A stretch of 64,000 nucleotides of DNA, from positions 96,001 through 160,000 of the forward strand of contig CBDDFZ010000002.1 in the NCBI GenBank assembly GCA_965227515.1, in the 5' to 3' direction. The notes beneath the pieces were generated by a model, which did no database searches, was not told the DNA's origin, and worked only from the letters and a program-made list of their open reading frames with translations. Positions 5,032 to 27,076 of this stretch are shown in pieces (positions within the stretch are counted from its first letter, which is position 1; every line of letters starts with the position of its first letter). The stretch is from Alphaproteobacteria bacterium (GTDB taxonomy: Bacteria; Pseudomonadota; Alphaproteobacteria; CALKHQ01). Both the position numbers and the translations under genes were made by a program.

Positions 5032-5038
5032 GGGTATT

Positions 5039-5128
5039 CCTCGTAAGTCTGATGATGTAGCAGAGCACGCCCGTCCGACGGCGAACCGCAGGATGGGGCA
5101 AGTGGGCTGTTACGCCTCAGACTCGAGG
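5039..5128 (-). promoter_or_regulatory. Predicted mRNA hairpin sequestering the cupredoxin RBS
   Basis: On the mRNA, CCUCGAGUCUGA (last codons and stop of leader ORF) pairs with UCAGACU(UA)CGAGG, which contains the GAGG RBS. Confidence 0.7.
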
Positions 5129-5443
5129 AGGTGGCGGACTGACTTCGCTGAACAACTGGTGGCACGCGTTGTCGTCATGACCGGGCGACAACCCGGCCAA
5201 CGAAACGCAGCTTGCGGCAAACGATGCACGCAATGGCATCACGAGCCCGCCTGAACAACGCTCAATCGATATATCGCACGTGGGGCCGGAATCGCCGGTG
5301 TCGCCACGATGATGAAGATCCGCTGCCGACATGGCTGCCGCGACCACGCTGCCGTTACCCGCCATGGCGGGAGTCCCATACGTCGCGATAGCGACGGCGG
5401 TCCAGAACATCAGGGTCAGGGCAAGTCCGAGCAGGCGGTTCAT
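5117..5443 (-). CDS. Small secreted Cys-containing protein with proline-rich C-terminus (CutF/CruR-like leader)
   Basis: 108 aa, N-terminal signal/TM, 4 Cys, ends SPPPPRV; first gene after CueR-like promoter; GAGG RBS. Confidence 0.7.
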   Translation of the reverse strand: MNRLLGLALTLMFWTAVAIATYGTPAMAGNGSVVAAAMSAADLHHRGDTGDSGPTCDISIERCSGGLVMPLRASFAASCVSLAGLSPGHDDNACHQLFSEVSPPPPRV

Positions 5444-5457
5444 TTCGCCTCTATCCG

Positions 5458-5480
5458 GCCCTCCCGTGCTGGAAGGTCAA
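5458..5480 (-). promoter_or_regulatory. CueR-like promoter of leader-cupredoxin-copA-copB
   Basis: Minus strand TTGACCTTCC-AGCACG-GGAGGGC: -35 fused to a perfect half-site; second half degenerate, 6-bp spacer. Confidence 0.6.
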
Positions 5481-5545: not shown

Positions 5546-6118
5546 CTAGTGCGCGCCCGAACCGCCGCGCGCGATGGCCAGATGATGCGCCTGGTGGTGG
5601 GCGCCTGTCGCCATCAGCCCGAAGAAGCCCAGCGCCTGGATGCGGGCCACGTCGGCCGCATCGGCGGCGGTAACGCGCCAAACGATCCCGCCGTCCGACA
5701 CCTCGGCCTGCGACATCCAGCCGGTCTCGCCAGCCAACACCGGCGCATGGGCGGGCACCATCCGGCCAGCGGCCGCACCGCCGTAGCCGGCGACATCGAT
5801 GCGCATTTCCAGGCCGTCCGCCAGCTTGGCCTCCTGGACCGTCGCCTGCATCAGCATGTCCATATCGGCCAGGTGCGCGGCCAGGGCACCGATGTCGACC
5901 GACGACCAGTCGGTCTGCGGGTCGGTTTCCAAGATCGCCACGATCTCGGCGATGGCGGCAAAGGCGCTCTGCCCCGTTTCGGCCGGCGCACTCGGCCCGG
6001 CACCCATCATCTGAGCATGGTCGCCATGTAGGTGCTCCTGGGCCTTATGCTCCTGAGCATTTGCCGGCCACGCCAGGACGGCGACGATCGCGGGCAGAAC
6101 AGCGGCTGCAATTCTCAT
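5546..6118 (-). CDS. His-rich exported hypothetical protein
   Basis: ATG 6118 with GGAGGAGG RBS; signal peptide; HL.DMD, RMVPAHA and C-terminal GAHHQAHH. Confidence 0.8.
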   Translation of the reverse strand: MRIAAAVLPAIVAVLAWPANAQEHKAQEHLHGDHAQMMGAGPSAPAETGQSAFAAIAEIVAILETDPQTDWSSVDIGALAAHLADMDMLMQATVQEAKLADGLEMRIDVAGYGGAAAGRMVPAHAPVLAGETGWMSQAEVSDGGIVWRVTAADAADVARIQALGFFGLMATGAHHQAHHLAIARGGSGAH

Positions 6119-6172
6119 GAGACCTCCTCCGTGAGCATCATTCGCTTCTACCCGACCGCATCCCCACGCCAT

Positions 6173-6186
6173 ATGATCTGGATCAT
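6173..6186. promoter_or_regulatory. FNR/CRP-like box
   Basis: ATGAT-CTGG-ATCAT dyad (cf. TTGAT-N4-ATCAA) between the divergent Crp/Fnr gene and the His-rich gene. Confidence 0.55.
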
Positions 6187-6796
6187 GTCGGATGTCTTTT
6201 CCGCGATTGAGCTTGCGGTTGGCCCGTCGGGCGTCAGCACGGTGTCGTTGGCCCCGCAACAGGCACTGTTCCGCCAGGACGACCCGACAAGGGGCATGTT
6301 CCTGTTGAGGTCGGGGCGCGTCGACCTGATGCGGCACACGGCATCGGGCATCACCGCGCGCATCCATGCGGCACGCGCCGGCGAGACGTTCGCGGAAGCG
6401 TCGCTATACAGCGACCGCTACCATTGCGATGCGGTGGCGGTGTCGGCCAGCGAAGCGATCCAGTTCCACAAGGCGGCCGTGCTGGCCGCCCTCGCTCGCC
6501 AGCCCGAGCTGGCAAGCGCCATGTCGCATCACCTGGCCGCCTCGTTGCGCGAGACGCGGCGGCGCATCGAGCTGCTGTTCGTGACGCCGTTGTCCGAGCG
6601 CCTCCATCAGCGTCTGGCCGATCACGCCAACAGCGACGGCGCGCTCCCGCCCCATACAACGACAAAGACCATCGCGGAGGAAATCGGCGCCACGCCGGAA
6701 GCCACCTATCGCGCACTTGCGCAACTCGAACGCCAGGGTCGGGTCGAGCGGGTCAGGTGCGGGACAATCAGGCTTCGGGCGATCCCGCGATCCTGA
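6185..6796 (+). CDS. Crp/Fnr-family transcriptional regulator
   Basis: [15 protein letters not shown] cNMP-like domain; C-terminal [23 protein letters not shown]; start uncertain (6173 or 6185). Confidence 0.88.
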
Positions 6797-9098
6797 CCGA
6801 CCTCAGCCTTAGCGCGTTGCCGATCACCGACACCGACGACAGGCTCATGGCGGCGGCGGCCAGCATCGGGGAGAGCATGACCTCGAGGAACGGGTAGAGG
6901 ATGCCGGCGGCGATCGGCACCCCGGCGGCATTGTAGAAAAACGCGAAGAACAGGTTCTGGCGGATATTGCGCATGGTCGCCTGCGCCAGGTGGCGCGCGC
7001 GCAGGATCGCGTTGAGGTCGCCCTTGACCAGAGTGATGCCGGCGCTCTCCACCGCTACGTCGGCGCCGGCCCCCATGGCGATGCCGACATCGGCCGCGGC
7101 CAAAGCCGGCGCGTCGTTTACCCCGTCACCGGCCATGGCGACACCATGTCCATCCGCCTGGAACCGGCTCACCAGGTCCGCCTTGGTCTGCGGGCTTGCC
7201 TCCGCGTGCACTTCGTCGATGCCGAGCGTGCCGGCCACCGCCTCGGCGGTGCGCCGGTTGTCGCCGGTGGCCATCACGATCCGGAGCCCCGCTTCGTGCA
7301 GGGCGGCGATTGCGGCGGGCGTGGTTTCCTTGACTGGGTCGGCCACAGCGAGGATGCCGGCGGCCTTGCCGTCGACACCGACGAACATCGCGGTCTTGCC
7401 CTCGCCGGCCAGTTCCGCCGCGCGCTCCGAGAGCGACCCAAGTTCGACCCCGAGATCATCCATCAGCGCGGCATTGCCAAGCGCCACCTCGCGCCCGTCC
7501 ACCGTACCGCGTACGCCCTTGGCAGTGATCGCCTGGAAGTCATTGGCCGACGATAGGGTCAATTGCCTTTCCTTCGCCCCTGCCAGGATCGCCGCCGCCA
7601 GCGGATGCTCCGAGCCCTGCTCCAATGCGGCGGCCAGTGCCAGCATCTCCCCTTCGTCATCCGAGGCGATAACATCGGTCAGCTTGGGCTTGCCCTCGGT
7701 CAGGGTGCCGGTCTTGTCGACCACCAGCACGTCCACCTTGGCGAACCGCTCCAGCGCCTCGGCATCGCGGATCAGCACGCCGAGCCCGGCACCGCGCCCG
7801 GTCGCCACCATGATCGACATCGGTGTGGCCAGCCCCAGCGCGCACGGGCAGGCGATGATCAGCACGCTAACCGCGGCGATGAGCGCGAACGCGAATGCCG
7901 GCGACGGTCCGAAAATCAGCCACACGACAAAGGCGATGACGGCGATGGCGAGCACCAGCGGCACGAACCAGCCCGCGACCCGGTCGGCCAGCGCCTGGAT
8001 CGGCGCGCGGCTGCGCTGGGCTTTCGCCACGAGGTCGACGATCCGAGCCAGCATGGTATCGGCGCCGACTCGTTCGGCTTGCATGACGAAGCTGCCGGTG
8101 GTGTTGAGCGTGCCGCCGGTGACCGCATCGCCGTCCGCCTTCTCCACCGGCATCGGCTCGCCGGTCAGCATACTCTCGTCGACCGCCGAGCGGCCCTCGA
8201 TCAACACGCCGTCCACCGGCACGCTCTCGCCCGGACGCACGCGCAGACGATCGCCGGCCTGGACTTGGTCCAGCGGCACGTCGATTTCGTCATCGCCCTC
8301 AATGCGGCGGGCGGTCTTTGGAGCAAGGTCCAGCAGGGCCCGGATTGCATCGCCGGTGCGCTCACGCGCGGCGAGCTCTAACACCTGGCCGACCAGCACC
8401 AGGATGATGATGACCGCGGCGGCCTCGAAATAGATCGGCGGGCCGCCATGCCCATCACCCATGTGACCGGGAAAGAGGCCCGGCGCCACCATCGCTACCA
8501 CGCTGAACACATAGGCGGCACCGGTGCCGATGGCGATCAGGGTCCACATGTTGGTGTTGCGGGTGACGATGGAGCGCCATCCGCGGCGGAAGAAGGGTGC
8601 GGCAGCCCACAACACGACGGGCGTTGCCAGCGCGAACTGCAGCCAGCGGGCCACCTCGACGCCAAGCCAGTCGGCGAACGGGATGCCGATGTGGCTGCCC
8701 ATCTCCAGCGCGAACACGCCGATCGCCAGCGGCGCCCCGACCCACAGCCGGCGCCGGAAATCCACCAGCTCGGGATTAGGACCGGCGTCGGCGCTCGGCG
8801 TCATCGGCTCCAGCGCCATGCCGCAGATCGGGCAGTCGCCGGGCGCGTCGCGCACGATCTCCGGGTGCATCGGGCAGGTGTAGCGCGTGCCCGGCGCAGC
8901 GGGAGCCGGCGTCCCCGACGAGCGCTCGCCAGCCTCGAACCGCTCCAGGCACTTGCGCGAGCAGAAGTAGTAAGTCTCTCCTTCGTGCTCTGAGACATGC
9001 TCCGCAGTTGAGGGGTCGACGGTCATGCCGCAGATCGGGTCACGAACCGCGGTTCCCTCAGGATGACTATGGTCGTGGTGATGCGCTTGCACGGACAT
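6768..9098 (-). CDS. copA: Cu(I)/Ag(I)-translocating P1B-type ATPase with YHS and heavy-metal-binding domains
   Basis: DPICGM/YYFCS (YHS), YTCPMHP..CPICGM, TGE, CPCALGL, DKTGT, SEHP, GDGVND, YN and MSLSS; start at ATG 9098 below the CueR promoter. Confidence 0.96.
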
Positions 9099-9147
9099 GG
9101 GCTTGCCCCCAGCCGCGGAGCCGGACAATCCCGCCGCGGTGTGTCCA

Positions 9148-9178
9148 TATATGGAGTTTCCAGTCACTGGAAGCTCAA
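9148..9178 (-). promoter_or_regulatory. CueR-type promoter of the Cu-ATPase
   Basis: TTGAGC-19 bp-CATATA with dyad AGCTTCC-N7-GGAAACT (9155-9175). Confidence 0.85.
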
Positions 9179-9205
9179 GCCAATTCTGAATCGACAATCA
9201 CTGTA

Positions 9206-9236
9206 TTGACATTCCAGCAACCGGAACCCTTATTCT
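9206..9236 (+). promoter_or_regulatory. CueR-type promoter of cueR and downstream operon
   Basis: TTGACA-19 bp-TATTCT with ACATTCC-N7-GGAACCC. Confidence 0.85.
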
Positions 9237-9261
9237 TTGATATGAAGGAGAGTGTGGCTCG

Positions 9262-9663
9262 ATGAACATCAGCGATGCGGCCGGCCTGAGCGGATTGCCC
9301 AACAAGACCATCCGCTATTATGAGGACATCGGGCTGGTGCAGCCACAGCGCAGCGGTAATGGATACCGCGCATTCACCGAGAGCGACGTGCATAAACTTC
9401 GCTTCTTGTGTCGCGCACGCTCGCTTGGATTTTCGATCGAGGATTGCCGCGCGCTTCTGGACCTATATGAAGAGCGGCATCGATCAAGCGCCGACGTAAA
9501 ACGGATCGCCAAGGCCAATCTGGCGCAAATCGACATGAAGATCGGCGAGTTGCAGGCGATGCGTCATACGCTGGTCCATCTGATTGACAGTTGTCATGGC
9601 GACGACAGGCCCGATTGCCCAATACTCGATGATCTGGCCGGTGCCGCATGGGCATCGCCCTGA
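9262..9663 (+). CDS. cueR: Cu(I)-responsive MerR-family regulator
   Basis: MNI...TIRYYEDIGL, R.LGFS, SADVK, CHGDDRPDCPILDDL. Confidence 0.96.
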   Translation: MNISDAAGLSGLPNKTIRYYEDIGLVQPQRSGNGYRAFTESDVHKLRFLCRARSLGFSIEDCRALLDLYEERHRSSADVKRIAKANLAQIDMKIGELQAMRHTLVHLIDSCHGDDRPDCPILDDLAGAAWASP

Positions 9664-10001
9664 TGCCCATGGGCTTGTCTCGCCTGATTGCAGGTGCGAT
9701 TGTCGCACTGGTCTTGTCTCTGCTACAGACCGCTCCGACATCAGCGCATGAAGGCGTTCATTCGATGGTCGGTATAGATAAGCGTGGCAGCGCTGACGTC
9801 GGCCAGTCGTTCGCATTGCATGAGGCGCAGACTTGTCACAGCGGAGCGGCGGGCGCCATTTGCGCGTCGCTAGCTGCAGCGCCATTGGAGGCTGGCAGTT
9901 GGTTGCCTCCAATGGCTGATGCTCGATGCTGGTCGCAAGGTCAGCAGCTGTGGCGCAGCAAAGCCCTTTCAGCCCCGCCAACGCCACCACCGATGGCTTG
10001 A
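9663..10001 (+). CDS. Small secreted Cys-containing protein with proline-rich C-terminus (second CutF/CruR-like leader)
   Basis: ATG overlaps cueR stop (TGATG); signal peptide; TCHSGAAGAICAS; ends APPTPPPMA. Confidence 0.65.
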   Translation: MPMGLSRLIAGAIVALVLSLLQTAPTSAHEGVHSMVGIDKRGSADVGQSFALHEAQTCHSGAAGAICASLAAAPLEAGSWLPPMADARCWSQGQQLWRSKALSAPPTPPPMA

Positions 10002-10051
10002 TCCTGGTCGATTGAAGAACCGATCTTCAAACACGGGATCCAGTACAGGTG
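9988..10051 (+). promoter_or_regulatory. Predicted mRNA hairpin sequestering the cytochrome c' RBS
   Basis: Nested pairs CACC/GGTG, GCT/AGT, GATCCTG/CGGGATC, TTGAAGA/TCTTCAA; spans leader stop codon and AGGTG RBS. Confidence 0.65.
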
Positions 10052-10055
10052 AAAG

Positions 10056-10607
10056 ATGATGCGAACAGCGGCAGCAATTGCAGCGACCGCAGCTGTAGCG
10101 GCAGCAACTTTGAGTGCGTATGGCCATACGGGCGCCTCCGGCGTCGTGAAGAAACGCATGGACGCCATGGGAGTTCTTGGCGACGCTATGGAAGCGTTGA
10201 CAGGCATGATGCGCGAGGAGACGCCTTACGACGCTGAGCGCGTGCGTTTGTTGGCTCAAGATATTGCGATCCACGGCGGCGCGGCTCTGACGGAATTGTT
10301 TCCCGAGGGCAGCGCCGACCCGCCATCCGAGGCCTTGCCTCAAATCTGGGGCGAATGGGATCGCTTCGCGGGTCTCGCGGATCAACTTGCTTTGGTGGCT
10401 CGAGCGCTCGAAGCCGTAGCCGACAGTCCGCGGTCCGATGGAGACGATATGATGTCAGGCGGCGGCATGATGTCGGGTGGTGGCATGATGGGCAGCCCCA
10501 TGACACCGGACTATGACATGTTGATCGAAATGCCCCCGGACATGGTGTTTCGACAACTCGCCCAGACCTGCACAGCCTGCCATCAGGACTATCGCCGGGA
10601 GGAATAA
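10056..10607 (+). CDS. Class II cytochrome c (c'/c556-like) with Met-rich insert
   Basis: Signal peptide, LFPEGS, A.P.IW..W..F, C-terminal CTACH; MMSGGGMMSGGGMMG insert. Confidence 0.9.
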   Translation: MMRTAAAIAATAAVAAATLSAYGHTGASGVVKKRMDAMGVLGDAMEALTGMMREETPYDAERVRLLAQDIAIHGGAALTELFPEGSADPPSEALPQIWGEWDRFAGLADQLALVARALEAVADSPRSDGDDMMSGGGMMSGGGMMGSPMTPDYDMLIEMPPDMVFRQLAQTCTACHQDYRREE

Positions 10608-11510
10608 ATGTCTCGACGCAAAGTTCTTGGCGTCGGGGCACTTGTTATTGTGATTGTCGGAACCGGCACGGCGTACATGGTCGTGCGCGGCCCCGACATT
10701 CCGCTCCGCCGCCTAGACGGTCTGACCGGCAACATTGATCGCGGTGCCTACGTCGCGAGGTTGTCCGGATGCATCGCCTGCCACACCGATGCCCGCAATA
10801 ACGGTGCGGTTCTCGCGGGTGGCGGGGCGACCGAGACCGCCTTCGGCACCTTCTATGCGCCGAATATCACGCCCCACCTGGAAGATGGTATCGGCGGATG
10901 GTCGATCGATGATTTCAGTCGAGCGCTGACGGCCGGCCTGTCTCCCGATGGCAGCCACTACTTCCCGGTGTTTCCGTACGCTTTCTACACACGGATGTCC
11001 GATCAGGACATCGTCGACTTATGGGCTGCGGTCAATTCCGTGCCGCCGGTGGCCAGCGGCCCGCCCGAACACGAGCTGGATTTTCCGTACAGCGTAAGAG
11101 CCGGCGTTGGCCTATGGAAATGGTTGTATCTCGATAACGGCGAACTGGCACCTGACCCGTCCCGGCCCGAGTCCTGGAATCGCGGTCGCTACCTCGCGCT
11201 CGGTCCGGCTCATTGCGGCGCATGCCACACGCCCCGTGACTTTCTCGGCGGTCGGCAGCTCGAATTGCGTTGGACCGGCGGCGAAGGGCCTGATGGCGAG
11301 GCGGTGCCGCCGATCACCGGTACCGCATTGAGCGACGCTGGTTGGACGGAAGAGGATCTGGCCTTTGCATTGAGAACCGGCATCGTCCCGGGCGGCGATG
11401 CCTTTGGCGGCTCAATGGCAGAAGTTGTCAGGGATGGCTCGCAATTCTGGAGCGGTGACGATCTGTCAGCCATCGCCACATACGTATTTTCTGTGGAGAG
11501 CGCGGAATGA
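10608..11510 (+). CDS. Membrane-anchored diheme cytochrome c
   Basis: CIACH and CGACHTPR; FGTFYAPNITP..GIG.WS; resembles dehydrogenase cytochrome subunits. Confidence 0.9.
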   Translation: MSRRKVLGVGALVIVIVGTGTAYMVVRGPDIPLRRLDGLTGNIDRGAYVARLSGCIACHTDARNNGAVLAGGGATETAFGTFYAPNITPHLEDGIGGWSIDDFSRALTAGLSPDGSHYFPVFPYAFYTRMSDQDIVDLWAAVNSVPPVASGPPEHELDFPYSVRAGVGLWKWLYLDNGELAPDPSRPESWNRGRYLALGPAHCGACHTPRDFLGGRQLELRWTGGEGPDGEAVPPITGTALSDAGWTEEDLAFALRTGIVPGGDAFGGSMAEVVRDGSQFWSGDDLSAIATYVFSVESAE

Positions 11511-12910
11511 CGTTGACCCGTCGAGATTTCCTGACTGCAGGCGCGGCACTGGTAACGGCATCGGCCATCGCTCGTCGCTCCGCCACAGCGGATGTGGCAA
11601 CGGATCCGGATGTACCAACCATCCGGGCACAGCGTGGCGGTGCGTGGATGGTGCCTGGGGAATCCCTGCGGACAGAAATCTGGGGCTATGAGGGGCTGGT
11701 TCCCGGGCCGGACTTGAGACTGCCGCGAGGTGGTCGCTTGATCCGGAGGTTCGTGAACGAGCTGCCTCAGCCGTCAACCATACATTGGCATGGTATTCGC
11801 CTTCAGAACGCCATGGACGGTGTGCCGGAACTGACACAGGCGGTGGTGCAACCCGGTGAGGAGTTCCTTTACGACTTTACAGTGCCGGATGCGGGGACCT
11901 TTTGGTACCACTCCCACAATCAGTCGTGGGAGCAAGTGGCACGCGGCCTATATGGCGCGATCGTCGTCGACGAGCCCGATCCGCCTGAGGTCGACCGTGA
12001 CGACGTGTTGCTGATCGATGATTGGCGACTGACGGCCGAAGGCGAGATCGACGAAAGTTTTGGCGCGATGTCCGACTGGTCGCACGCTGGCCGTCTCGGA
12101 AACTGGCTCACCGTCAACGGCAATGGCGCTTGGCATGCAGCGGTTGGACACAATTCACGGCTGCGGCTGCGCTTGGTAAATACGGCAAACGCGCGGGTAT
12201 TCACGCTGACAATGAAGGGCCTCGAAGGCTGGATGGTCGCCCAAGATGGCCAACCGCTCGACGCACCAGTACCTGCAAATTGGATCACTTTGGCGCCGGG
12301 TCAACGGACCGACTTGATCGTCGACGTGATGGCAATGCCGGGGGAAGAAGGCAGCCTGGCAGCCGTCGATCGCAATCAAGTGTTTCGGTTGGCGACGTTC
12401 ATGGTTGCCGGAGAATCGCGGACCGTACGACTTGGCGAACCCGAGCCGCTACCTGCAAATCCGAACCCCGCACTCGGCAGCATCGAAACCGCAAGAAGAG
12501 TGACGCTGACAATGTCCGGCGGAGCCATGGGCCGAATGACCGGCGCCACCTTGTCCGGACAGTACCTCGGCATGGCCGATCTTGTGGAACGCGGAAAGGT
12601 GTGGGCCCTGAACGGCAGCGCCGATATGCCCGACAAGCCACTTATAGATGCAGCGTTAGGGGAGACGGTCCGGCTGACGATTGTCAATGAGACGGCGTTT
12701 CCGCACGGCATGCACCTGCACGGCCATCACTTCAGGCAGGTCTTCGCCAACGGTTCGACCGGCCCATGGCGAGACACGATCTTGCTGCAGGGCGCTGAAA
12801 CGCTCGAAGTGGCCTTTGTCGCTGACAATCCCGGAGATTGGCTGTTGCACTGCCATATGCTCGAACACGCTGTCGCCGGAATGAACACCTGGATACGCGT
12901 GTCCGGATGA
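11507..12910 (+). CDS. Tat-exported multicopper oxidase (CutO/CueO-like)
   Basis: TRRDFL Tat signal; HWHG, WYHSH, HGMHLHGHHF, HCHMLEH...GM. Confidence 0.95.
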   Translation: MTLTRRDFLTAGAALVTASAIARRSATADVATDPDVPTIRAQRGGAWMVPGESLRTEIWGYEGLVPGPDLRLPRGGRLIRRFVNELPQPSTIHWHGIRLQNAMDGVPELTQAVVQPGEEFLYDFTVPDAGTFWYHSHNQSWEQVARGLYGAIVVDEPDPPEVDRDDVLLIDDWRLTAEGEIDESFGAMSDWSHAGRLGNWLTVNGNGAWHAAVGHNSRLRLRLVNTANARVFTLTMKGLEGWMVAQDGQPLDAPVPANWITLAPGQRTDLIVDVMAMPGEEGSLAAVDRNQVFRLATFMVAGESRTVRLGEPEPLPANPNPALGSIETARRVTLTMSGGAMGRMTGATLSGQYLGMADLVERGKVWALNGSADMPDKPLIDAALGETVRLTIVNETAFPHGMHLHGHHFRQVFANGSTGPWRDTILLQGAETLEVAFVADNPGDWLLHCHMLEHAVAGMNTWIRVSG

Positions 12911-13377
12911 CACGTGTAACGCTAATCGCAATTTGCGCGCTCGGCGCCGCGCTCGTCAGTGCGTTTGGCTATTGGTATCTCAGCGATAACGGCTCTGAGA
13001 CACCGCCTTCAGCCATGCTGCCGGCCTTTGGCCTGGAAGAGGGAGCCGGTCTTTACGCCCGGTTTTGTGCGGACTGCCATGGTGACAATTTGGAAGGCCA
13101 ACCCAACTGGCAGGTAGCAGGCAACGACGGTGTATTGCCCGCACCGCCGCACGACGACTCAGGCCACACATGGCACCACCCAGACACAATGTTGTTCGAC
13201 TACACCAAGTACGGCGGGCAGGAGATGGCTGAGCGGATGGGCCTGGATGGCGTGGCCAGCGGCATGCCAGGTTTCGCCGATGTGATGACCGACGAGGAAA
13301 TCTGGACCGTCCTGGCCTTCATCAAGTCTCGTTGGTCGGAGCGGAACCGTCAGGCGCAGGCGCAACGGTCCCAATGA
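12907..13377 (+). CDS. Monoheme cytochrome c
   Basis: ATGA overlap with oxidase; CADCHG, PAPPHD.SGHTWHH, SGMPGF. Confidence 0.9.
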   Translation: MTRVTLIAICALGAALVSAFGYWYLSDNGSETPPSAMLPAFGLEEGAGLYARFCADCHGDNLEGQPNWQVAGNDGVLPAPPHDDSGHTWHHPDTMLFDYTKYGGQEMAERMGLDGVASGMPGFADVMTDEEIWTVLAFIKSRWSERNRQAQAQRSQ

Positions 13378-13412: not shown

Positions 13413-13443
13413 TAGACCTTCCAGCAACCGGAAGCCGCAGAAT
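13413..13443 (+). promoter_or_regulatory. CueR-type promoter of DUF411-dsbA
   Basis: TAGACC-19 bp-CAGAAT with ACCTTCC-N7-GGAAGCC; core TTCCAGCAACCGGAA identical to the cueR promoter. Confidence 0.85.
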
Positions 13444-18760: not shown

Positions 18761-20254
18761 GGCGATTATGATCCTGACAAAGTAGAATGCGTTTCGCTGG
18801 GCCGAGATCATTGGTGAGCGCCTAGCCGAGATGTGATGGCGCGTAGGCGAGGCGGCCCAATATCTCTTCCAGGACGTGTTCGGCGACTGACCAACTCGTT
18901 GCCACCCGGCCGATGCGCTGCATTTTTCGTCGGTAGGCGTGCTGCAGATGCTGTGAAAGGCCATGTCGCAAACTCGGAAGATGCCAGAGAAGCGGAAAGA
19001 GGCCGAACCCGGGGCGTTCGTGCGGTTCACGGCAGCGACGGCCAAGGTTGCGCCGTCCCGGCGGCCTAAGCCAAAGACAGAGAACGAGTAGGCTGTCACC
19101 GGCCGCCGGGGCGTAAATCCCGGTGTTAAAGCGGTAAGACATACTGGCGCGGCCAAGATCGCGTGTGTGCGCAGATACGCGTCCAGCGACCGTGGCAGCG
19201 ACGAAGGTGAGCGCGTACGTACACTCTCACGCCTTCAGCGCGTGTCATTGCCACTACTCCGATTGTCAAAGCAGGGGGTGGAGCCCCTGCCGCTCCGGAC
19301 CGCACTTCGCGGTCCGCGGCCTACAGCGAGCCCGGCCAGAGGCCGGTGACAGTCAGAGCCGGCGGCAGCTTGCTCGAAGCATACCAGATTTGGTGTGCGG
19401 AGTCTCGATTCGGTCCAGAAATGCTAATTGGGCCAACGCCGTGCCAGGTGGCGCAGCAGCGCCTGGCGGATGGTGAGGCGGCGGGTGGCCCGCTTACCGC
19501 TGATCAGGCCGCCGATAGGTGAGGCGCTTGCCGGCGATGCCCTTGGCGGCCAGTGCGGCGCGTTCGAGGTCGGAGACATCGCGGCTGTTGAAGCGGAAGT
19601 CGAACTCGCCGAGGTAGCAGCGCAGGTGCTTCTGGCTGACGTGGTGGTAGTTACCGCTGATGCCGCGCTTGAGCAGCGAGAACGCGTTCTCGATGGTGTT
19701 GGTGTGCCAGAACTGGCCGCGCACGTATTCCTTGGCGCTGTGGTTGACCGAGCCGTGGCCGCTGAATTCCTCACCGGGTGCGGCGTAGGTCTTGGACTCG
19801 TCGGTCATGAGATAGGAGCCAGGGTCGATGTGGCTGGTGAGGATGGGGCGCAGGGTCTTGGCGGTGACGTCCGGCACATGGAACGAGCGCAGCTTGCCGT
19901 CACGCTCGACCAGCGCCATGACTGCCTCTTTGTTGCGCGGCGCGCGGTGAGCGCGATCCTGGAGCGCTCGAACTCGCTTGAACAGAGTGTCGACTGTCAG
20001 CGGATGGCGGCAGGCAATACTCTGTTAGAGGCCAAGTCGATGGGACTTGCCTTCGAGGGGGCGGCAGCTCAGTATGCCGTGGCGCGGGCAGATGGGCCAG
20101 TTGGTCAGGCTTGGTTGCAGCCAACCGCGTCCCTTGTGTTCGGTGTGGAGGATGGGATTGGCATGGTCGTTCATGGCGATTTCCCTTTACCTCTAGAGAT
20201 AGTCGGTCTTAATCATTGCACTCTTTGTCAAAATTGGCGCTACTGATAATATAC
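18761..20254 (-). mobile_element. Decayed IS1595-family element (ISNwi-like ends)
   Basis: Left end GGCGATTATGATCCTGACAAAG; opposite end reads GTATATTATC...TGACAAAG on the minus strand; encloses transposase remnant; no target duplication seen. Confidence 0.55.
19494..20174 (-). pseudogene. IS1595-family (ISXO2-like DDE) transposase, disrupted
   Basis: Intact C-terminal part LMTDE..Y, VNHS..EYVRG, HTNTIE..FS.LKR, HL..YL.EFDFR; N-terminal zinc-ribbon remnant (NPI.H.E...ICP...LEGKSHR.GL) with a stop and an internal deletion. Confidence 0.85.
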
Positions 20255-20418
20255 AAGTGGGAACCGAGGTCGAGAGCATGTGCTGGTAGTGACAGCCGCG
20301 CCCGGCCAAAACACCACTATGCGGTTTGTTTCAAGTCTCGAACTTATTTTATTGTCTTGTTTTTTTCATTAAATCTAAGTTGTCTTTACTTTTCTTCATA
20401 TGCAGACAAAGTTCTCCT

Positions 20419-22164
20419 TCAAACCTCCTTGGCCGTAACGACTGCGCCTTCGCTGGATATATGAGCCTTCAGACGTTCAGCCTGGCTCTTGGGTGTCGCG
20501 ATCGCCAGCAGCCTTTTGGCTCTTGAGGCGGCCACATATAGTTTTCGTGCATCCTCGGCCTTGTCGGCCGGCTCGCCTGTTTCCAAGAAATCCAAGATAC
20601 CCTTGAGAGTGGATGTCGTGACGACACAGACAGCCGGATACTCCTTACCTTTGACCGAATGAATCGTCCGGGGCATCGCTGTTTCGGCTGGTACAGCCGC
20701 AAGCGCCGCATTCAACCCGGCATTCCAAGCCAGCTTTTGAGAAATAGATTTTCCGTCTTCAATCGTTAGTTCGCTTGATAAGAAATCCTTGGCAGCGTCG
20801 TGCCACGCCTTTGCCCCTGCATATTTTATCGGATCAAACCTAAGGGACCTGAGAACAGAGATAACTTTCGGACGCCAGCTAGCAGGTTCTATTTCATTAT
20901 CTGTGAGATATTGATGGTACGACCGGTCGCCTAGGCGCCCCTCCAGTTCCAGGAGAATCCGGTGGACGCTCTCGATGGCCGTTTTCATGTCACTAAAGCC
21001 CGCAGCGAAATGAAAGTCGGTTACGGCTTCGGCAAGCCGGATAGTCCGTTGGCCTGAATTGGTGGGCCGCGGCTGACCCGCGGCGGCCGCACCGCTTGCC
21101 TTTGTTGCCGCGACGATGGGCGCAGATGAAACATCGACACCGGCCTCTCTTAGCAGGGCACAAAATGCCGTGCCAATTGAAGCCGGAACTCCTTTGCCCG
21201 GATAGGACAGAATCTGAACCGGCGCGGTTTCATCCTTCAATTGCCCGAGAGCATCGTCGGGTGCGCCGCGAGCAGCGGGTGGCCTGAACTGGGCGAGGGC
21301 CTTGCAGATATTAGGCGTAGATCGGAAGTTGCCGGTCAAATCCTTGCGCTGGTCGGAGGGAAACGTATCCGCGAACTCAAAAAGATGATCGGTGACGCCG
21401 CCGCGAAATTCATAAATCGATTGATGGGGATCGCAAACGACTTTCACGGGCAGGCCGGAATCACGCAACCATGAGATGACAGTCAGATCGTCGGGGTTGC
21501 AGTCCTGCGCTTCATCTACGATGACCTCGCGAAACCGACCCCTGAGCGCACCGGCGATCCGGCTCGCAAGCGTCTGGTCATTGAGGCGTTCAAGCGCGAC
21601 AGCACGCGCTTCGTCAAAGCCCAACTGGCCCCGTTCGCGTAAGCTGGCACGGAGCCGGGTAGCGGCTGTCGTATACGCTTGAAGCTGATAGTCCTGCTTT
21701 TGGGATACGTCAAAGCCCTTGCGCTTGGCCGCCAAATCAATAATCGCGCCTGTTTGTGGGCAAAAACAGGATAGGGGCAGAGCGTGAGCGCCATTGAACG
21801 GCTCGACTGCAAGATGCGCGATGTCGGCAAGCAGGCGCGGGCGTGCATCGCAATCCTTGAGGCTAAACGGCGCAACTAGGAACTGCCAGACGAAACTGTC
21901 GAAGGAGCCGACAAAGCTCGGAAAGAGGGGCGTGGAAAGCAGTCCTTCCTGCCTGAGCCGGGTATCGAGTTCAATAACGGCGGCTTGCGTAAAGGATATG
22001 AACGCCACGCCGCGTCCCGGCAACATACTCCGAAACACCCGGCGGGCGCGTTCGGTCATCACCCTCGTTTTTCCGGCGCCAGGACAGGCCGTTACAAAGG
22101 CCGAGCCGTCATGACCGATAACAGCGCGTTGCTCGTCGGTGGGATTGAAGGGTAGCTGGCTCAT
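20419..22164 (-). CDS. gajB: UvrD-like SF1 helicase, Gabija GajB-type
   Basis: ACPGAGKT, VDEAQD, DPHQSIYEFRG, NFRS, TIHSVKGKEY, YVAASRAK; ATGA overlap with OLD nuclease. Confidence 0.85.
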   Translation of the reverse strand: MSQLPFNPTDEQRAVIGHDGSAFVTACPGAGKTRVMTERARRVFRSMLPGRGVAFISFTQAAVIELDTRLRQEGLLSTPLFPSFVGSFDSFVWQFLVAPFSLKDCDARPRLLADIAHLAVEPFNGAHALPLSCFCPQTGAIIDLAAKRKGFDVSQKQDYQLQAYTTAATRLRASLRERGQLGFDEARAVALERLNDQTLASRIAGALRGRFREVIVDEAQDCNPDDLTVISWLRDSGLPVKVVCDPHQSIYEFRGGVTDHLFEFADTFPSDQRKDLTGNFRSTPNICKALAQFRPPAARGAPDDALGQLKDETAPVQILSYPGKGVPASIGTAFCALLREAGVDVSSAPIVAATKASGAAAAGQPRPTNSGQRTIRLAEAVTDFHFAAGFSDMKTAIESVHRILLELEGRLGDRSYHQYLTDNEIEPASWRPKVISVLRSLRFDPIKYAGAKAWHDAAKDFLSSELTIEDGKSISQKLAWNAGLNAALAAVPAETAMPRTIHSVKGKEYPAVCVVTTSTLKGILDFLETGEPADKAEDARKLYVAASRAKRLLAIATPKSQAERLKAHISSEGAVVTAKEV

Positions 22165-23981
22165 TTGACCAGCGCTTTGATGGCGTCCTGGATATAGTCG
22201 GGAACGTTAAATGTATCGCTTGCGCCAACCTTCTCCGCCAGGAGCTGGGCAAAGTCACCCTTCGGCGTGTTCTTGAATAGCTCCTGTATGGCTTTGGCGC
22301 GGATATCGCCATCATTGGCGACCGCTGCGTCCCATTTCGCGGCGGATCGGGGATGAAGCGCCAGATACACGTCTTTCATACATGCGGCATTGCCAGCAGC
22401 GACCAGTTCGGTTTCCAGTGAGTACGTATTCACGCAAACATCGAGAACTTCTGCCGCGCCATTACCTGCTGCCAGCGCATCAAGATCGGCCTTCCGCTTG
22501 TCGCCAGACGCCGCCTCCCCTTCATCTGCTGTGTGCTTGTCGCCGTCCGTTACAATGACTAAACGGTCGGCGATCCGTACTCCGTCATAGGGGGCCAAGA
22601 GGGCCTTGGCGTATGGCACAAAATCAACACCGTCAATCGGCACGAAGACGGCTGAACGAAATATCCGAAAGTCCGCTGGATGGTCTTTGAGGACATAATG
22701 CTTGGCGAGAACGGGCAACAGCAACGCTTCGGCAATGCCTTCGACCAGCAGCACCCTGCCGCCAAACAGCAGGGCAGATTTGGTAACGTCGAGATAGCGG
22801 TCAATCTTCCTGCGGTCGGGCTCAGTAAGGTCAAGTTTGGCAAGAGGGATACACCGGGATTCGGGCCGCGGTGGCGGCTTCTCTGCTGCCTGTGTTTCAG
22901 CGGCCTCATCGGGTGCAGGCTTGTCCGCCGCTTCACCACCCATCACCACTGGCGCGATCGATCGGACGAAAACGAGGCTCTTGCTAGGGACCCATGCGGA
23001 CAGGTTAGGAGAATGCGTCGCGACGATGACCTGCAAATGCCCGGCGGGTGCGTCCTTGTCGTCCTTGGCTTTAAGGGAATGTTCGGCCCGCTCTTCCAGG
23101 AAGTTCAATACGGCGGCCTGGAGCTGCGGATGCAGATGGGCTTCCGGCTCTTCGACAAGGAACATCGTCAGTTCGGCATTATCGGTCCTTTCAAGCTCGA
23201 CGGCGATGGTGGCGATGTACAGAAGGTTCGCAAATCCGTGTCCGGAATATTGCAGGTCTTCTGGCGTAAAACTGTGATCGGCGAGTTTGAAGCGTAGGTC
23301 ACGCGCGATGTCGATAAGCTTTTCATCCGTGCTAAAACCGAGCGTCGCGCCCTGCCGCCGGACACCGGCAGTCAGAATGTCTAGTCCTGTCGCAACGGCG
23401 GTATCAACATCGGTCAGAATGGGATGCTCGCTTGTCCGGGCGAGGCTCTTCGCTACGTCCTCGGGATCACGCTTGCCGAGAAAGTGGTTGAGCAAAGCGT
23501 GAATGCGTGAGGGGTGGCCGGAGGCAAGTGCGTGCTTGGCGTCTCGCAGCGGCGGCAGATAGACATGGCGGATCATATCGTGGGCGCCCGCCTCGGGAAC
23601 GCTCCTAAAGCGGCCCGCCCAAAGAGTAGGCCGAATATGTCCTGGATGGCCTGTTGCATCGTAGGTCAGCCCAAAACATGCCTCCTGCAGCGTGTCGTCT
23701 GTCGTTGCGGAAATCAGCCTTCCTTGTTGCGGTGCGGATAGTTCACAAAATTTGGCGCAAATCTCGAAACTGTGTGGTATTGCGCCAAAGCGAATATCAG
23801 TTGGGTCGCAATATAATTCTCGGCGCCCGCTCAAAGGTCTAGATAAGAGTCGAATGGCATCTATGATATTACTCTTGCCGCCGTTATTTTCTCCAACCAA
23901 AATGGCAAGTCCTTTTTGAAATTCAATTGTATCGCTTGAAAACGACCGGAAGTTTGATAACTGCAGTTGTGCCAAATGCAT
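22161..23981 (-). CDS. gajA: OLD-family ABC-ATPase/TOPRIM endonuclease, Gabija GajA-type
   Basis: NFRS, GENNGGKS, EEPEAHLHP, THSP, TOPRIM VEG..E, DGD, SLE. Confidence 0.87.
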   Translation of the reverse strand: MHLAQLQLSNFRSFSSDTIEFQKGLAILVGENNGGKSNIIDAIRLLSRPLSGRRELYCDPTDIRFGAIPHSFEICAKFCELSAPQQGRLISATTDDTLQEACFGLTYDATGHPGHIRPTLWAGRFRSVPEAGAHDMIRHVYLPPLRDAKHALASGHPSRIHALLNHFLGKRDPEDVAKSLARTSEHPILTDVDTAVATGLDILTAGVRRQGATLGFSTDEKLIDIARDLRFKLADHSFTPEDLQYSGHGFANLLYIATIAVELERTDNAELTMFLVEEPEAHLHPQLQAAVLNFLEERAEHSLKAKDDKDAPAGHLQVIVATHSPNLSAWVPSKSLVFVRSIAPVVMGGEAADKPAPDEAAETQAAEKPPPRPESRCIPLAKLDLTEPDRRKIDRYLDVTKSALLFGGRVLLVEGIAEALLLPVLAKHYVLKDHPADFRIFRSAVFVPIDGVDFVPYAKALLAPYDGVRIADRLVIVTDGDKHTADEGEAASGDKRKADLDALAAGNGAAEVLDVCVNTYSLETELVAAGNAACMKDVYLALHPRSAAKWDAAVANDGDIRAKAIQELFKNTPKGDFAQLLAEKVGASDTFNVPDYIQDAIKALVK

Positions 23982-24109
23982 GAAAAATATCCTAGCGCAT
24001 TCCGTCGGCTGCTACCATGCGTGGTCATGGGGGGGCGCTATTCTTTGGTGGTACTTAGGCTATGGCACCGTCATTGGTTTGGGCCGAGGGATAGCATGGT
24101 GTGTTCGGC

Positions 24110-24619
24110 TTACTCGCGGAACTCGCGATCCGAATCCAACAAGGCATCAACAGCAATTCGCACAGCCGCAACTGCATCTGCCGGCGTGACAGTAGAGTAG
24201 TGCCGCATCCGATGTACCGCGGTGCTCGCATTCGTGACGATGTGTTGGAGATCCTGAGGAGCATTTTCATAGAATAAGTCGCTACTGTCGAGATAGATGG
24301 GCCCCACGCGCTCGAGATGCTTTCGGCACCAGGCGTCTACGCCGTGCGCAACCGCAAGGCTGAGGTCATCCGCGTCGCTCGTCGAAGCCATGCAATTGCT
24401 CCCAATTCTATTTGCAGCACGACGAAGATTGTCCCTGGCCTGATCTATATCCCACTGTAACCTGACACTATCGGTCAGGGGGGCACCGACACGGACTTTC
24501 CAGGTCAGCTCCAAATTGACTGCTTCCCCTCGACCGGTTGTGGTCTTCTCAGCCGGCAAGACCACTTGGAACGAGCGACTTCCTTCTTCCCAATAGGGTC
24601 GGGATTTTCGCTCAGACAT
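24110..24619 (-). CDS. Hypothetical protein (about 169 aa)
   Basis: ATG 24619 preceded by GAGGAGGT RBS; co-oriented with neighbours; no family recognised. Confidence 0.6.
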   Translation of the reverse strand: MSERKSRPYWEEGSRSFQVVLPAEKTTTGRGEAVNLELTWKVRVGAPLTDSVRLQWDIDQARDNLRRAANRIGSNCMASTSDADDLSLAVAHGVDAWCRKHLERVGPIYLDSSDLFYENAPQDLQHIVTNASTAVHRMRHYSTVTPADAVAAVRIAVDALLDSDREFRE

Positions 24620-24797
24620 GGCTGACCTCCTCGGATCGTTGCGGCTCATCGATGTCCTCGTTCGTTTGCGATCGACCTTCAGAGGAATTGTCGGTGACGC
24701 TCCTGCCAGCACCGTATGGCCTGACTCGACCGTGGACGCCACTCAATTCGGTGGCGTTTTCAAGCCCAAACCGATGGCGCTGCGATCGACCCGCTGT

Positions 24798-25748
24798 CTA
24801 TCCGGCGTCGTTGTGGTTATCTGATGAGGATGCCTCGTTTTCGGCGTTCTGACGAGACGCCTCGGCAGCTGCGGCTGCCTTTTCGAAGCCCTCTGCGAAT
24901 AGACCCATTCCGAGGGCTGCACCCTTGTGCCGCGCCAGCTGCGCCTCGATCGTTTCAGGGAGATCGCCGACCTCCCTTAGCATTGTTTTCAACCGCTTTC
25001 GAAGTTCAGACTTAGTCATTGTCTTGAGGTCCATCATGAAGCACACCGACGAGAACTCGTCACGACGGAAGCTGGGCGGTAGCGCCATCTCGCACCAGCT
25101 CGCTAAAAAAAGTGCACCGGATACATCCTTGCCTTCTATGGTCCATATCAAAGGCTCGCCGCATTTGTCTTCAAGTGCGGAGCAGACATAGAACCAGTCT
25201 CGCATCAGTGCGCCTTGCTTGAATGGGGTGGATTCGTCCTCGGTCAGCGGGCCAAGCAGATGGACTTCGACCTTGGCCTCATCGAGCAGAATGTCGTCGG
25301 GGTGGGGGTATAGGCGGGGTGGTTCACGTCGTTGCTGCTTATATTGGGCCAGGAGGCGCTGCCCCTCCAACTTTCTCCGAGCGAAGTACTCAAAGTTTTT
25401 TAGAGCACGCTTCTGTGCTTTGCGCTCTTCTTCTTTCAAAAGCTCCATCGCGTATCTTTTCGCTAGGCGATTGCCTTTGATGCCATCAAGGACAATACTT
25501 CGCGCGATAGCGTTCGCCGCACTCATTTCAACAGCTTGGCCGTTCTCATTCAGAGTCAGACGACGGAATGCCTCTTGCTCCAACAAACGTTCGAGGCTCC
25601 CATCGCGGAACCGCTTCGGTTCTGGGGCCTGCTTTGCCTTCTTAGGCCGCCCCTTTGGATTGCCGGACTGGCCCTTCCTGAATCTATGCTCTGCCGGCGG
25701 CTTGCCGTAGCCCACCGAGTAGGTCGCATCCTTGCGTTGCCTGCTCAT
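24798..25748 (-). CDS. DUF5681 domain protein
   Basis: YSVGYGKPP...RFRKGQSGNPKGRPK N-terminus; ATGA overlap with methyltransferase. Confidence 0.85.
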   Translation of the reverse strand: MSRQRKDATYSVGYGKPPAEHRFRKGQSGNPKGRPKKAKQAPEPKRFRDGSLERLLEQEAFRRLTLNENGQAVEMSAANAIARSIVLDGIKGNRLAKRYAMELLKEEERKAQKRALKNFEYFARRKLEGQRLLAQYKQQRREPPRLYPHPDDILLDEAKVEVHLLGPLTEDESTPFKQGALMRDWFYVCSALEDKCGEPLIWTIEGKDVSGALFLASWCEMALPPSFRRDEFSSVCFMMDLKTMTKSELRKRLKTMLREVGDLPETIEAQLARHKGAALGMGLFAEGFEKAAAAAEASRQNAENEASSSDNHNDAG

Positions 25749-27076
25749 TCGGCTGCCTCCACAGACAGTTGTTGTGTCCGCTCCGCCTCTGTGTCCTCGA
25801 ACGTCGAGCCAGTTGCCCCGAGTGTGGCAGCCTTGCCGGTGAAGCGCTCAAACCGACGCAATATGGTGTCGCAGTAGAGGGGATCGATTTCGATGACGCG
25901 GGCAGTCCGTCCAGTCTTTTCGGCCGCGATCAGCGTTGTGCCGGCGCCCGCAAATGCATCCAACACAATGCCGCCCCGCTCCGAGCAGTCACGTATTGCA
26001 TCGGCAACCAACGCAACTGGCTTGACCGTGGGGTGCATCGCCTGCTCTTCGGCACGCGTCGCAGAAAGACTGCTGATCCCTGCATAGTCCCAGACATTGG
26101 TGCGATATCGTCCCTGGTCGCCCAGACCGAACGTGTTGATATGCGGCGCAGAGCCGACCTTGAACACGAACACCAGCTCGTGCTTGGACCTGTAGAAGGT
26201 GCCCATGCCGCCATTGGTCTTGTTCCAAACGCACAGGTTCTTCAACTCGGTGAACACCTGTTGTCCCGCCGACAGCAGTTCGCCCATGTGACGCCAGTCC
26301 ATGCACACGAACGCAATGGCGCCGTCTCGGCAGGCGGTGGCCGCGGCACCCAGGGTTTCCGCCAGAAATGACGTGAAGGCCGTCTCAGACATTTCGCCGA
26401 CGCCCATGGCGAACTCGCGATGTCTCACGCGGCCCAGGCCGGAGACGTGCCCGTCGATGGGAACATTGTAGGGTGGATCGGTGAAGATCAGATCGACACG
26501 CTCACCTCCAAGGAGAGCCACATAGCTCTCGTGTTGCCTGGCGTCGGCGCAGATGAGCCGGTGACGTCCTAGATCCCAAAGGTCACCCGGCCGTGACACG
26601 GCCGCCTCGGGCGTCTCTGGTATCCAGTCCTCGCCAGCCTCTCGGCGATCCGGCGTTGCTTCGCTCGCGGCGTCAAGGACCAGGTCGATTTCGCCGACCG
26701 AGAAGCCGGTCACTGACAGGTCGAAGTCGAGGTCGATCAGCTCCTGCAGTTCAAGCGCCAAAGTCTCCTGATCCCATCCTGCATTGAGTGCCAACTTGTT
26801 GTCGGCCAGCACATAGGCCCGCCGCTCAGTGGCAGAGAGATGTGAGAGGCGAATGGTTGGGACCGTCTTCAGTCCTAACAGGCGAGCAGCTTCAACCCGA
26901 CCATGGCCGGCAACGATCTCACCGTCGTCGCTGACTAGGACCGGATTGGTGAAGCCGAATTTCTTGATGCTGTCGGCAATCTGGCGAATCTGTTTCTTCG
27001 AGTGTCGGCGCGCATTCCTCTTATAGGGCCGAAGCGTACCGACTGACTGGTCGACAATGCGATGTTCAAAGGCCAC
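25745..27076 (-). CDS. ParB/Srx N-terminal domain fused to N6/N4 DNA methyltransferase
   Basis: NAR.HS..QI, FGF.NP, AGHGR, ADNK (ParB-like); TDPPYN, HPTVKP, DAFAGAGTT (beta-class MTase); GTG start with AGGAG. Confidence 0.92.
   Translation of the reverse strand: MAFEHRIVDQSVGTLRPYKRNARRHSKKQIRQIADSIKKFGFTNPVLVSDDGEIVAGHGRVEAARLLGLKTVPTIRLSHLSATERRAYVLADNKLALNAGWDQETLALELQELIDLDFDLSVTGFSVGEIDLVLDAASEATPDRREAGEDWIPETPEAAVSRPGDLWDLGRHRLICADARQHESYVALLGGERVDLIFTDPPYNVPIDGHVSGLGRVRHREFAMGVGEMSETAFTSFLAETLGAAATACRDGAIAFVCMDWRHMGELLSAGQQVFTELKNLCVWNKTNGGMGTFYRSKHELVFVFKVGSAPHINTFGLGDQGRYRTNVWDYAGISSLSATRAEEQAMHPTVKPVALVADAIRDCSERGGIVLDAFAGAGTTLIAAEKTGRTARVIEIDPLYCDTILRRFERFTGKAATLGATGSTFEDTEAERTQQLSVEAAE

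Follow-up and report, generated by a model that had tools for sequence, protein, structure and literature searches.

The closest described system is CutF of Rhodobacter capsulatus, for which copper-induced stalling at a PPP motif during Sec export has been reported to melt an mRNA stem (PMC9973294; bioRxiv 10.1101/2025.02.05.636593). Dependence on PPP and EF-P and a disulfide-versus-Cu model have been described for CutF (bioRxiv 10.1101/2025.02.05.636593), and cutF itself was not induced by copper in promoter fusions (PMC7558416). The CutF-like set, gathered by iterative profile search, comprises 5,334 proteins, and the filters were a length below 150 aa, PP in the last 15 residues, a signal peptide and a same-strand downstream gene within 1000 nt (PMC9973294). 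The strict motif of 2021 was CxxxC, and the wider set includes motif variants (PMC8456105). In Table_3.xlsx of that source a CutF-like gene is found directly before a cytochrome c' gene at 11 loci, with arrows as read in 51 of the 53 Cytochrom_C_2 rows, and a MerR gene directly before the CutF-like gene in two of these 51 rows (W9HDK8 and N6YKP1), neither with cytochrome c' next; the table contains 2,022 MerR hits, the MerR-CutF order having been counted in the 51 Cytochrom_C_2 rows. More distant comparisons are provided by CruR/DUF2946 of Bordetella pertussis, in which conserved motif spacing has already been published (PMC9426467), and by the export-monitoring peptides SecM, VemP and MifM.

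The locus compared here with these systems lies in a window of 64,000 nucleotides, the whole stretch of alphaproteobacterial DNA that was analysed. Its features are the following:

6768-9098, minus strand: copA, P1B ATPase (Pfam)
9158..9178, minus strand: divergent CueR-type box ahead of copA (zero-mismatch pattern match)
9206..9236, plus strand: putative CueR-type promoter of cueR and the operon, with -35 TTGACA (9206-9211), a 19-nt spacer and the -10-like TATTCT (9231-9236)
9262..9663, plus strand: cueR, Cu(I)-responsive MerR-family activator of 133 aa (NCBIfam TIGR02044, 163.4 bits against a cut-off of 147.4; Pfam MerR)
9661..9665, plus strand: TGATG stop/start overlap of cueR and the leader
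9663..10001, plus strand: CutF-like leader ORF, open frame of 112 aa
9663..9749, plus strand: putative Sec signal peptide, aa 1-28, with a T-S-A cleavage site before His29 (hydropathy and inspection)
9834..9863, plus strand: Cys motif C58-H59-x7-C67 (C58-x8-C67), with C67 43 residues before the last Pro
9975..9992, plus strand: Pro tail P105-P106-T-P108-P109-P110, putative EF-P-dependent stall site, without Arg and not RAPP
9988..10051, plus strand: mRNA stem-loop linking the final Pro codons and the stop with the cytochrome c' Shine-Dalgarno (computed folds)
9988-9991 and 10048-10051: stem helix 1, CACC/GGTG
9996-9998 and 10042-10044: stem helix 2, GCT/AGT
10000-10006 and 10034-10040: stem helix 3, GATCCTG/CGGGATC
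10012-10018 and 10024-10030: stem helix 4, TTGAAGA/TCTTCAA
10047..10052, plus strand: Shine-Dalgarno AGGTGA of cytochrome c' (ATG at 10056 or 10059)
10056..10607, plus strand: cytochrome c' with a Met-rich insertion, the gene predicted to be directly gated (Pfam PF01322, E 8.4e-21)
10608-11510, plus strand: cytochrome c (Pfam)
11507-12910, plus strand: Tat-type multicopper oxidase (Pfam)
12910-13377, plus strand: cytochrome c (Pfam)

An ORF with a signal peptide and a Pro tail had been predicted to overlap the cueR stop, and the sequence and its hydropathy bear this out. The leader begins within the cueR stop codon (TGA, 9661-9663), has a basic n-region with a hydropathy of 2.8 over 12 residues, and ends in SAPPTPPPMA; its start is the probable one, because further in-frame ATG codons are present at 9648 and 9669. 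Neither CxxxC nor an Arg in the tail is found in its sequence. The GC content at third positions is 0.58, the neighbouring genes being higher (0.65-0.68). A chance check of the 238 window ORFs of 80-150 aa gave 17 with PP in the last 15 residues and a single one that also passed a cut-off for a hydrophobic N-terminus, namely this leader, a cut-off that failed to catch the first leader of the island at 5117-5443.

When the leader is set against the CutF-like filters, its 112 aa are below the 150-aa limit, PPTPPPMA places PP in the last 15 residues, an N-terminal signal peptide is recognized (by hydropathy and inspection only) and the same-strand cytochrome c' gene follows after 54 nt, within the 1000 nt allowed. 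The metal motif of Cys (or His), expected about 45 residues before the Pro motif, is found at 43 (C67 to P110), and computation gives a stem that shields the downstream Shine-Dalgarno and opens when a ribosome occupies the Pro tail, a property that is borderline at the window locus alone and clear across loci. Under the strict CxxxC rule of 2021 the leader falls outside, with C-x8-C. CutF (cutFOG; PMC8456105, PMC9973294) has about 110-120 aa, a Sec-type signal, a Cys motif and a C-terminal PPP, and the leader resembles it in all of these as well as in the distance of 43 residues from the second Cys to the last Pro, the stem over the next Shine-Dalgarno and the multicopper oxidase downstream. 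The two differ in that CutF carries CxxxC and PPPRL whereas the leader carries C-x8-C and PPTPPPMA, in that CutF gates the oxidase itself whereas the leader would gate cytochrome c', and in that cutF is the first gene whereas the leader is second, coupled to cueR behind a CueR-type promoter.

Entries of Table_3.xlsx such as K9GNI1, A0A2N5XK63, A0A1I0R4C7 and A0A058ZHK5 (PMC8456105) share the context: the genes that follow are those for cytochrome c', cytochrome c and a multicopper oxidase, and A0A2N5XK63 in addition has MerR and CopA two genes upstream. In the rows read, where they are listed by gene order, the leader is preceded by cytochrome c or another gene and not by cueR. K9GNI1 corresponds to one of the related loci described below (L017), whose leader matches it by organism, context and the VSA-AE cleavage site. 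CruR/DUF2946 (PMC9426467) is likewise an upstream ORF of Cu operons with a signal peptide, a Cys motif, a Pro tail and conserved spacing, but it has CxxC, RAPP, Rho termination, a long spacer and OFF polarity, whereas the leader has neither CxxC nor RAPP, its spacer is short, a stem hiding the Shine-Dalgarno stands in place of Rho termination, and its expected polarity is ON. Membership in DUF2946/CruR in the strict sense was considered and rejected on the basis of C-x8-C instead of CxxC, SAPP instead of RAPP and no PF11162 match; the operon layout also differs, the leader being a second gene that overlaps cueR with a 54-nt spacer to the next gene, as against a first gene followed by a long intergenic region. 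In SecM, VemP and MifM, too, an exported nascent chain pauses and the stem that covers the following ribosome-binding site is melted, but these precede Sec/YidC genes and read export force, whereas the leader precedes Cu-defence genes and carries a putative metal-binding Cys.

A word-based search with leader 9663-10001 gave 104 candidates, none of which passed, and scanning all 1.84 billion representatives with HMMER revealed one relative, P0002 (E 6.9e-5, 37% identity), which keeps the signal, C-x8-C, the 52/43 Cys-Pro spacing and the PPxPPPM end. By exact look-up neither window leader is present in the protein collection, in which P0002 is a singleton. A profile search with five sequences returned three proteins, P0002, itself in the alignment, and two of 135 and 127 aa; because two further sequences of the alignment have just these lengths, neither protein is counted as a new relative. 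Neither window leader has a Pfam family (none at E 0.1 or E 1 for leader 9663-10001) or an NCBIfam family, and PF11162 (DUF2946) is matched weakly by two of 44 aligned leaders (best E 0.077). Rfam gave no matches within the window and therefore no known riboswitch.

Related loci have been collected with the gated cytochrome c' gene as the anchor, 8 plasmid loci being picked from 92 matching records and joined to the best 80 of at least 543 confirmed genome matches. Of these 88 loci, 70 have an ORF that combines a Pro tail with a hydrophobic N-terminus and stops a short distance upstream of cytochrome c', and in 18 no leader stands directly before it. The 70 include one leader added by hand (L043, with PPPP 21 residues from its end) and not a frameshifted copy (L008); near-duplicates were collapsed to 46 leaders including the window's own. 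Mean column identity in the 44-sequence alignment is 16%. PPP is present in 43 of the 46 leaders, and His as the first residue past the putative cleavage site (small-x-small followed by H) in 33, against a shuffle mean of 15.7 and a maximum of 28. Several loci depart from the common form: in L043 (5467-5928) the leader continues 21 residues beyond PPPP, across sequence that lies between the genes in L027 and L031; in the Martelella plasmid copy L008 (2086-2448) the leader and cytochrome c' look frameshifted in comparison with the near-identical L045; and the Thalassobaculum-type leaders of L001, L018, L021 and L036 have RAPP and PPP together, and the two whose spacing was determined carry one Cys only, 43 residues upstream.

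The leaders had been chosen by the Pro tail alone and not by Cys, and of 48 sequences (the 46 leaders, P0002 and the window's first leader) 46 were then found to have a Cys at a distance of 42-45 residues ahead of the last Pro, 41 of them at 42 or 43; in 2000 shuffles the mean was 8.1 leaders and the maximum 19. Both window leaders have a distance of 43, as does CutF (C73 to P116, numbering of PMC8456105), the distance in CruR being 49 (C93 to P142; PMC9426467). The second Cys varies in position, with gaps of 3, 5, 6, 7 or 8 residues, and 11 of the 46 leaders have one Cys only; these 11 single-Cys relatives lie beyond what the disulfide-versus-Cu model published for CutF can explain. Leader 9663-10001 is a real, well-conserved and ordinary member of the known CutF-like class; less usual, as modest extras, are its direct coupling to cueR, the CueR-type promoter upstream, which probably adds a second layer of copper control, and the single-Cys relatives.

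The stem predicted between the end of the leader, with its final Pro codons and its stop, and the AGGTG of cytochrome c' was recovered by folding, all four helices being found, and the region 9970-10075 gave -33 kcal/mol (z -2.28, a value equalled by 3 of 200 shuffles). In all windows folded the inner hairpin (10000-10040) is near-certain, and the helix that covers the Shine-Dalgarno is of just 4 bp, with a pair probability that drops from 0.97-0.99 in short windows to 0.64-0.65 in 9900-10120; when 9940-10080 was folded, an alternative partner (9966-9974) dominated and 10048-10051 was still paired at 0.82 or more. The cost of opening the Shine-Dalgarno falls from 8.9 kcal/mol in the free mRNA to 1.8 with a ribosome modelled on P110; in a longer region with a 30-nt footprint it falls from 7.6 to 3.5, and footprints at P108 or earlier change little. 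Medians over the 46 leaders are 8.8 kcal/mol free and 3.7 when a ribosome occupies the last Pro. Placing the ribosome at the stop codon instead opens the Shine-Dalgarno about equally (1.8 against 1.8 in the window, medians 3.1 against 3.7), and therefore dwell time and not position must carry any regulation, geometry alone being unable to separate regulated stalling from plain coupling. The hairpin was also considered as an intrinsic terminator and rejected, as it lies outside the three terminator-like sites of 9000-10700 and has no T tract.

The opening cost exceeds the shuffle mean in 41 of the 46 leaders and is at or below the 5% level in 20. The native cost is higher than that of chimeras with swapped 5' arms in 40 of 46 (median 8.8 against 4.8 kcal/mol), so each locus has its own complementary arm despite differing sequences; 5-6 of the 46 leaders show no excess hiding against shuffles and chimeras. 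The window locus is borderline, its 8.9 kcal/mol being reached by 17 of 300 shuffles and 2 of 45 chimeras. Synonymous-codon selection for pairing with the Shine-Dalgarno is not shown there, with 47 of 300 recodings reaching the native cost; recodings hide it as well because CCN codons pair with GG by themselves.

The island contains a first leader, ahead of a cupredoxin gene, with the following features:

5117..5443, minus strand: first leader, 108 aa, with C56-x6-C63 and PPPPRV, C63 being 43 residues before the last Pro
5038..5129, minus strand: stem-loop hiding the GAGGA Shine-Dalgarno of the cupredoxin gene (computed)

With a ribosome on its last Pro the cost of opening this Shine-Dalgarno falls from 14.2 to 4.0 kcal/mol. 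The original prediction had described the two leaders as without obvious similarity, which holds in pairwise comparison (no similarity, BLASTP E 1.1), but not in profile comparison: a profile of the 45 other leaders, L017 included, matches leader 9663-10001 at E 1.1e-6 and leader 5117-5443 at E 1.5e-5. In that search of 239 targets P0002 and both window leaders ranked first, the next decoy standing at 0.16, and with the last 75 residues alone the order held more weakly (6e-4, 0.011 and 0.25 for the decoy). At profile level the description of the second leader as sequence-unrelated is therefore wrong, an independent origin of the two is rejected by the common profile match, and, as judged from sequence, both belong as distant members to a single known class; novelty and independence, as implied before, find no support, both gene contexts being already present in Table_3.xlsx of PMC8456105. 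Five of the six related loci that have a cupredoxin gene carry a second leader ahead of it, so the arrangement of two leaders per island recurs.

Other observations were made in the surroundings of the first leader. A CueR-box-like promoter (5443-5480, minus strand; TTGACC, 19 nt, GATAGA), with a dyad centre of 6 nt and outside the matches of the pattern scan, ends 6 nt before the first-leader ATG, so that this mRNA may be leaderless. The stretch 5546-6796 encodes a hypothetical secreted protein together with a Crp-family regulator in divergent orientation, a pair that recurs in the related copper loci L027, L031, L033, L039, L043, L068, L069 and L072. Further away (19494-27076, minus strand), the edge of a mobile region is marked by a piece of an IS1595-family transposase, followed by an AAA ATPase and a UvrD helicase, a candidate Gabija-like pairing, and by a DNA methylase with DUF5681.

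The promoter ahead of cueR holds a TTCC-N7-GGAA dyad in its 19-nt spacer. The CueR-box pattern used in the scans has zero-mismatch matches at two places in the window, the one at 9206-9226 (plus strand) and the divergent one, both between copA and cueR. With two mismatches allowed, 6 matches were found window-wide, which is not significant (7 of 100 shuffles reach 6), and a promoter scan of 9000-10700, allowing spacers of 16-18 nt only, found none. Of the 46 leaders, 21 have a CueR-type box in the 1.5 kb upstream of them, compared with 4 of 46 for downstream coding DNA. A third CueR-type box (13413-13443, plus strand), nearly identical to that of cueR, precedes genes for DUF411 and ScsC/DsbA proteins; the ATG at 13442 falls inside its -10 element, and the real start must therefore be further down. 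Near the predicted start of the cueR transcript there is a mini-ORF of 7 codons (9242-9265, plus strand) whose stop overlaps the cueR ATG (ATGA), and cueR has its own Shine-Dalgarno 11 nt from its start.

The leader overlaps the stop of an upstream ORF by 1 or 4 nt in 16 of the 46 non-redundant leaders, that ORF, identified in all but two, being mostly cytochrome c. Direct overlap with cueR is found in the window and in one of the 88 related loci (L088), among the matches listed, and the order cueR-cytochrome c-leader in L013, L018 and L021. A literature search covering few subscription journals found no paper on a cueR-coupled or single-Cys leader. Downstream, the junctions of 10608..13377 abut or overlap (TAAATG, ATGA, TGATG-like), and the island as a whole is Cu-themed, with CueR, CopA, two multicopper oxidases and CopB (Pfam, NCBIfam). 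The cytochromes c' of the window and of L001-L007 share an invariant His directly after the signal peptide and a Met/Gly-rich insertion, sequence features suggestive of Cu binding.

The leader is probably a CutF-like cis-acting nascent-chain sensor of ON polarity that gates the cytochrome c' operon. By analogy with known CueR biology, Cu(I)-CueR would activate the promoter at 9206-9236 and yield an mRNA for cueR, leader, cytochrome c', cytochrome c and oxidase, on which ribosomes ending cueR could restart on the leader at TGATG. The leader, with its signal-like N-terminus, would be exported co-translationally by Sec, and with the ribosome at PPP Cys67, 43 residues away, would be on the periplasmic side of the translocon, where Cu bound to it may lengthen the pause, as the CutF experiments suggest. 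The paused ribosome is computed to cover the 5' arm of the stem and free AGGTGA; cytochrome c' would then be translated, and the coupled cytochrome c and multicopper oxidase with it. When Cu is lacking, the ribosome would run off and the stem re-form. It had been proposed that each oxidase operon has its own Pro-tail leader and stem, and with this the conservation in 70 of 88 loci, the Cys-Pro spacing, the upstream CueR boxes and the published CutF mechanism agree; a nascent-chain sensor is the reading adopted, and the leader probably reads periplasmic Cu while CueR reads cytoplasmic Cu. A more specific version, offered tentatively, is a two-compartment AND gate on one mRNA, in which cytoplasmic Cu, through CueR, would set transcription and the loading of ribosomes onto the leader by the TGATG overlap and periplasmic Cu, through the leader, would set the time that the stem is open per ribosome, and in this branch sensing would be done not by a Cys pair but by one Cys kept at 42-45 residues from where the ribosome stalls, perhaps aided by the His at the mature N-terminus.

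The same stall-and-melt device might respond to periplasmic thiol redox, another metal or Sec export capacity instead of Cu, and it would then pace a cytochrome operon whose maturation needs reduced thiols; the Cu theme of the whole island and a Cys spacing equal to that of CutF speak against this, and it is judged unlikely. That the coupling is unregulated is doubtful in a higher degree: the leader would be an exported Cu-binding peptide, the hairpin would set only stoichiometry or mRNA stability, and all copper control would come from CueR-dependent transcription, for which the upstream CueR boxes, the equal opening by a ribosome at the stop and at PPP and the His at the mature N-terminus, suited to a metal-binding peptide, can be quoted. 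A Cys-Pro distance fixed within 3 residues at 16% identity, however, fits a ribosome-to-translocon ruler and not a free chaperone, and CutF, once read as a chaperone, works only in cis (PMC9973294).

Two further readings have very little probability. A CruR-like OFF switch, with default stalling relieved by Cu and the operon shut by Rho-dependent termination or by re-formation of the stem, is favoured by the SAPP of the tail, one residue off RAPP, and by the RAPP of the four Thalassobaculum-type leaders, but the operons that CruR heads serve Cu import, and its spacer is 162 nt and its distance 49 (PMC9426467), as against a 54-nt spacer, a distance of 43, detoxifying genes and a CueR-type activator box here, and the switch is highly improbable. 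Least credible of all is a decayed or untranslated remnant, which would have stayed behind when the cytochrome c gene found between cueR and leader in relatives was lost; the few homologues, the absence of the exact sequence from the protein collection and the cueR-cytochrome c-leader order of three loci would agree with it, but the frame is open, the signal, both Cys, the spacing and PPP are intact, P0002 keeps C-x8-C, the 52/43 spacing and the PPPM end at 37% identity, and L088 has the same direct overlap.

The kind of system, the idea of conserved spacing and the cytochrome c' gene context have all been published before. With the CutF-like sensor as the preferred reading, a gene overlooked by the family libraries can be annotated, and a mechanism shown for one protein, CutF, would be extended to a widespread cytochrome c'/multicopper oxidase operon of marine alphaproteobacteria.
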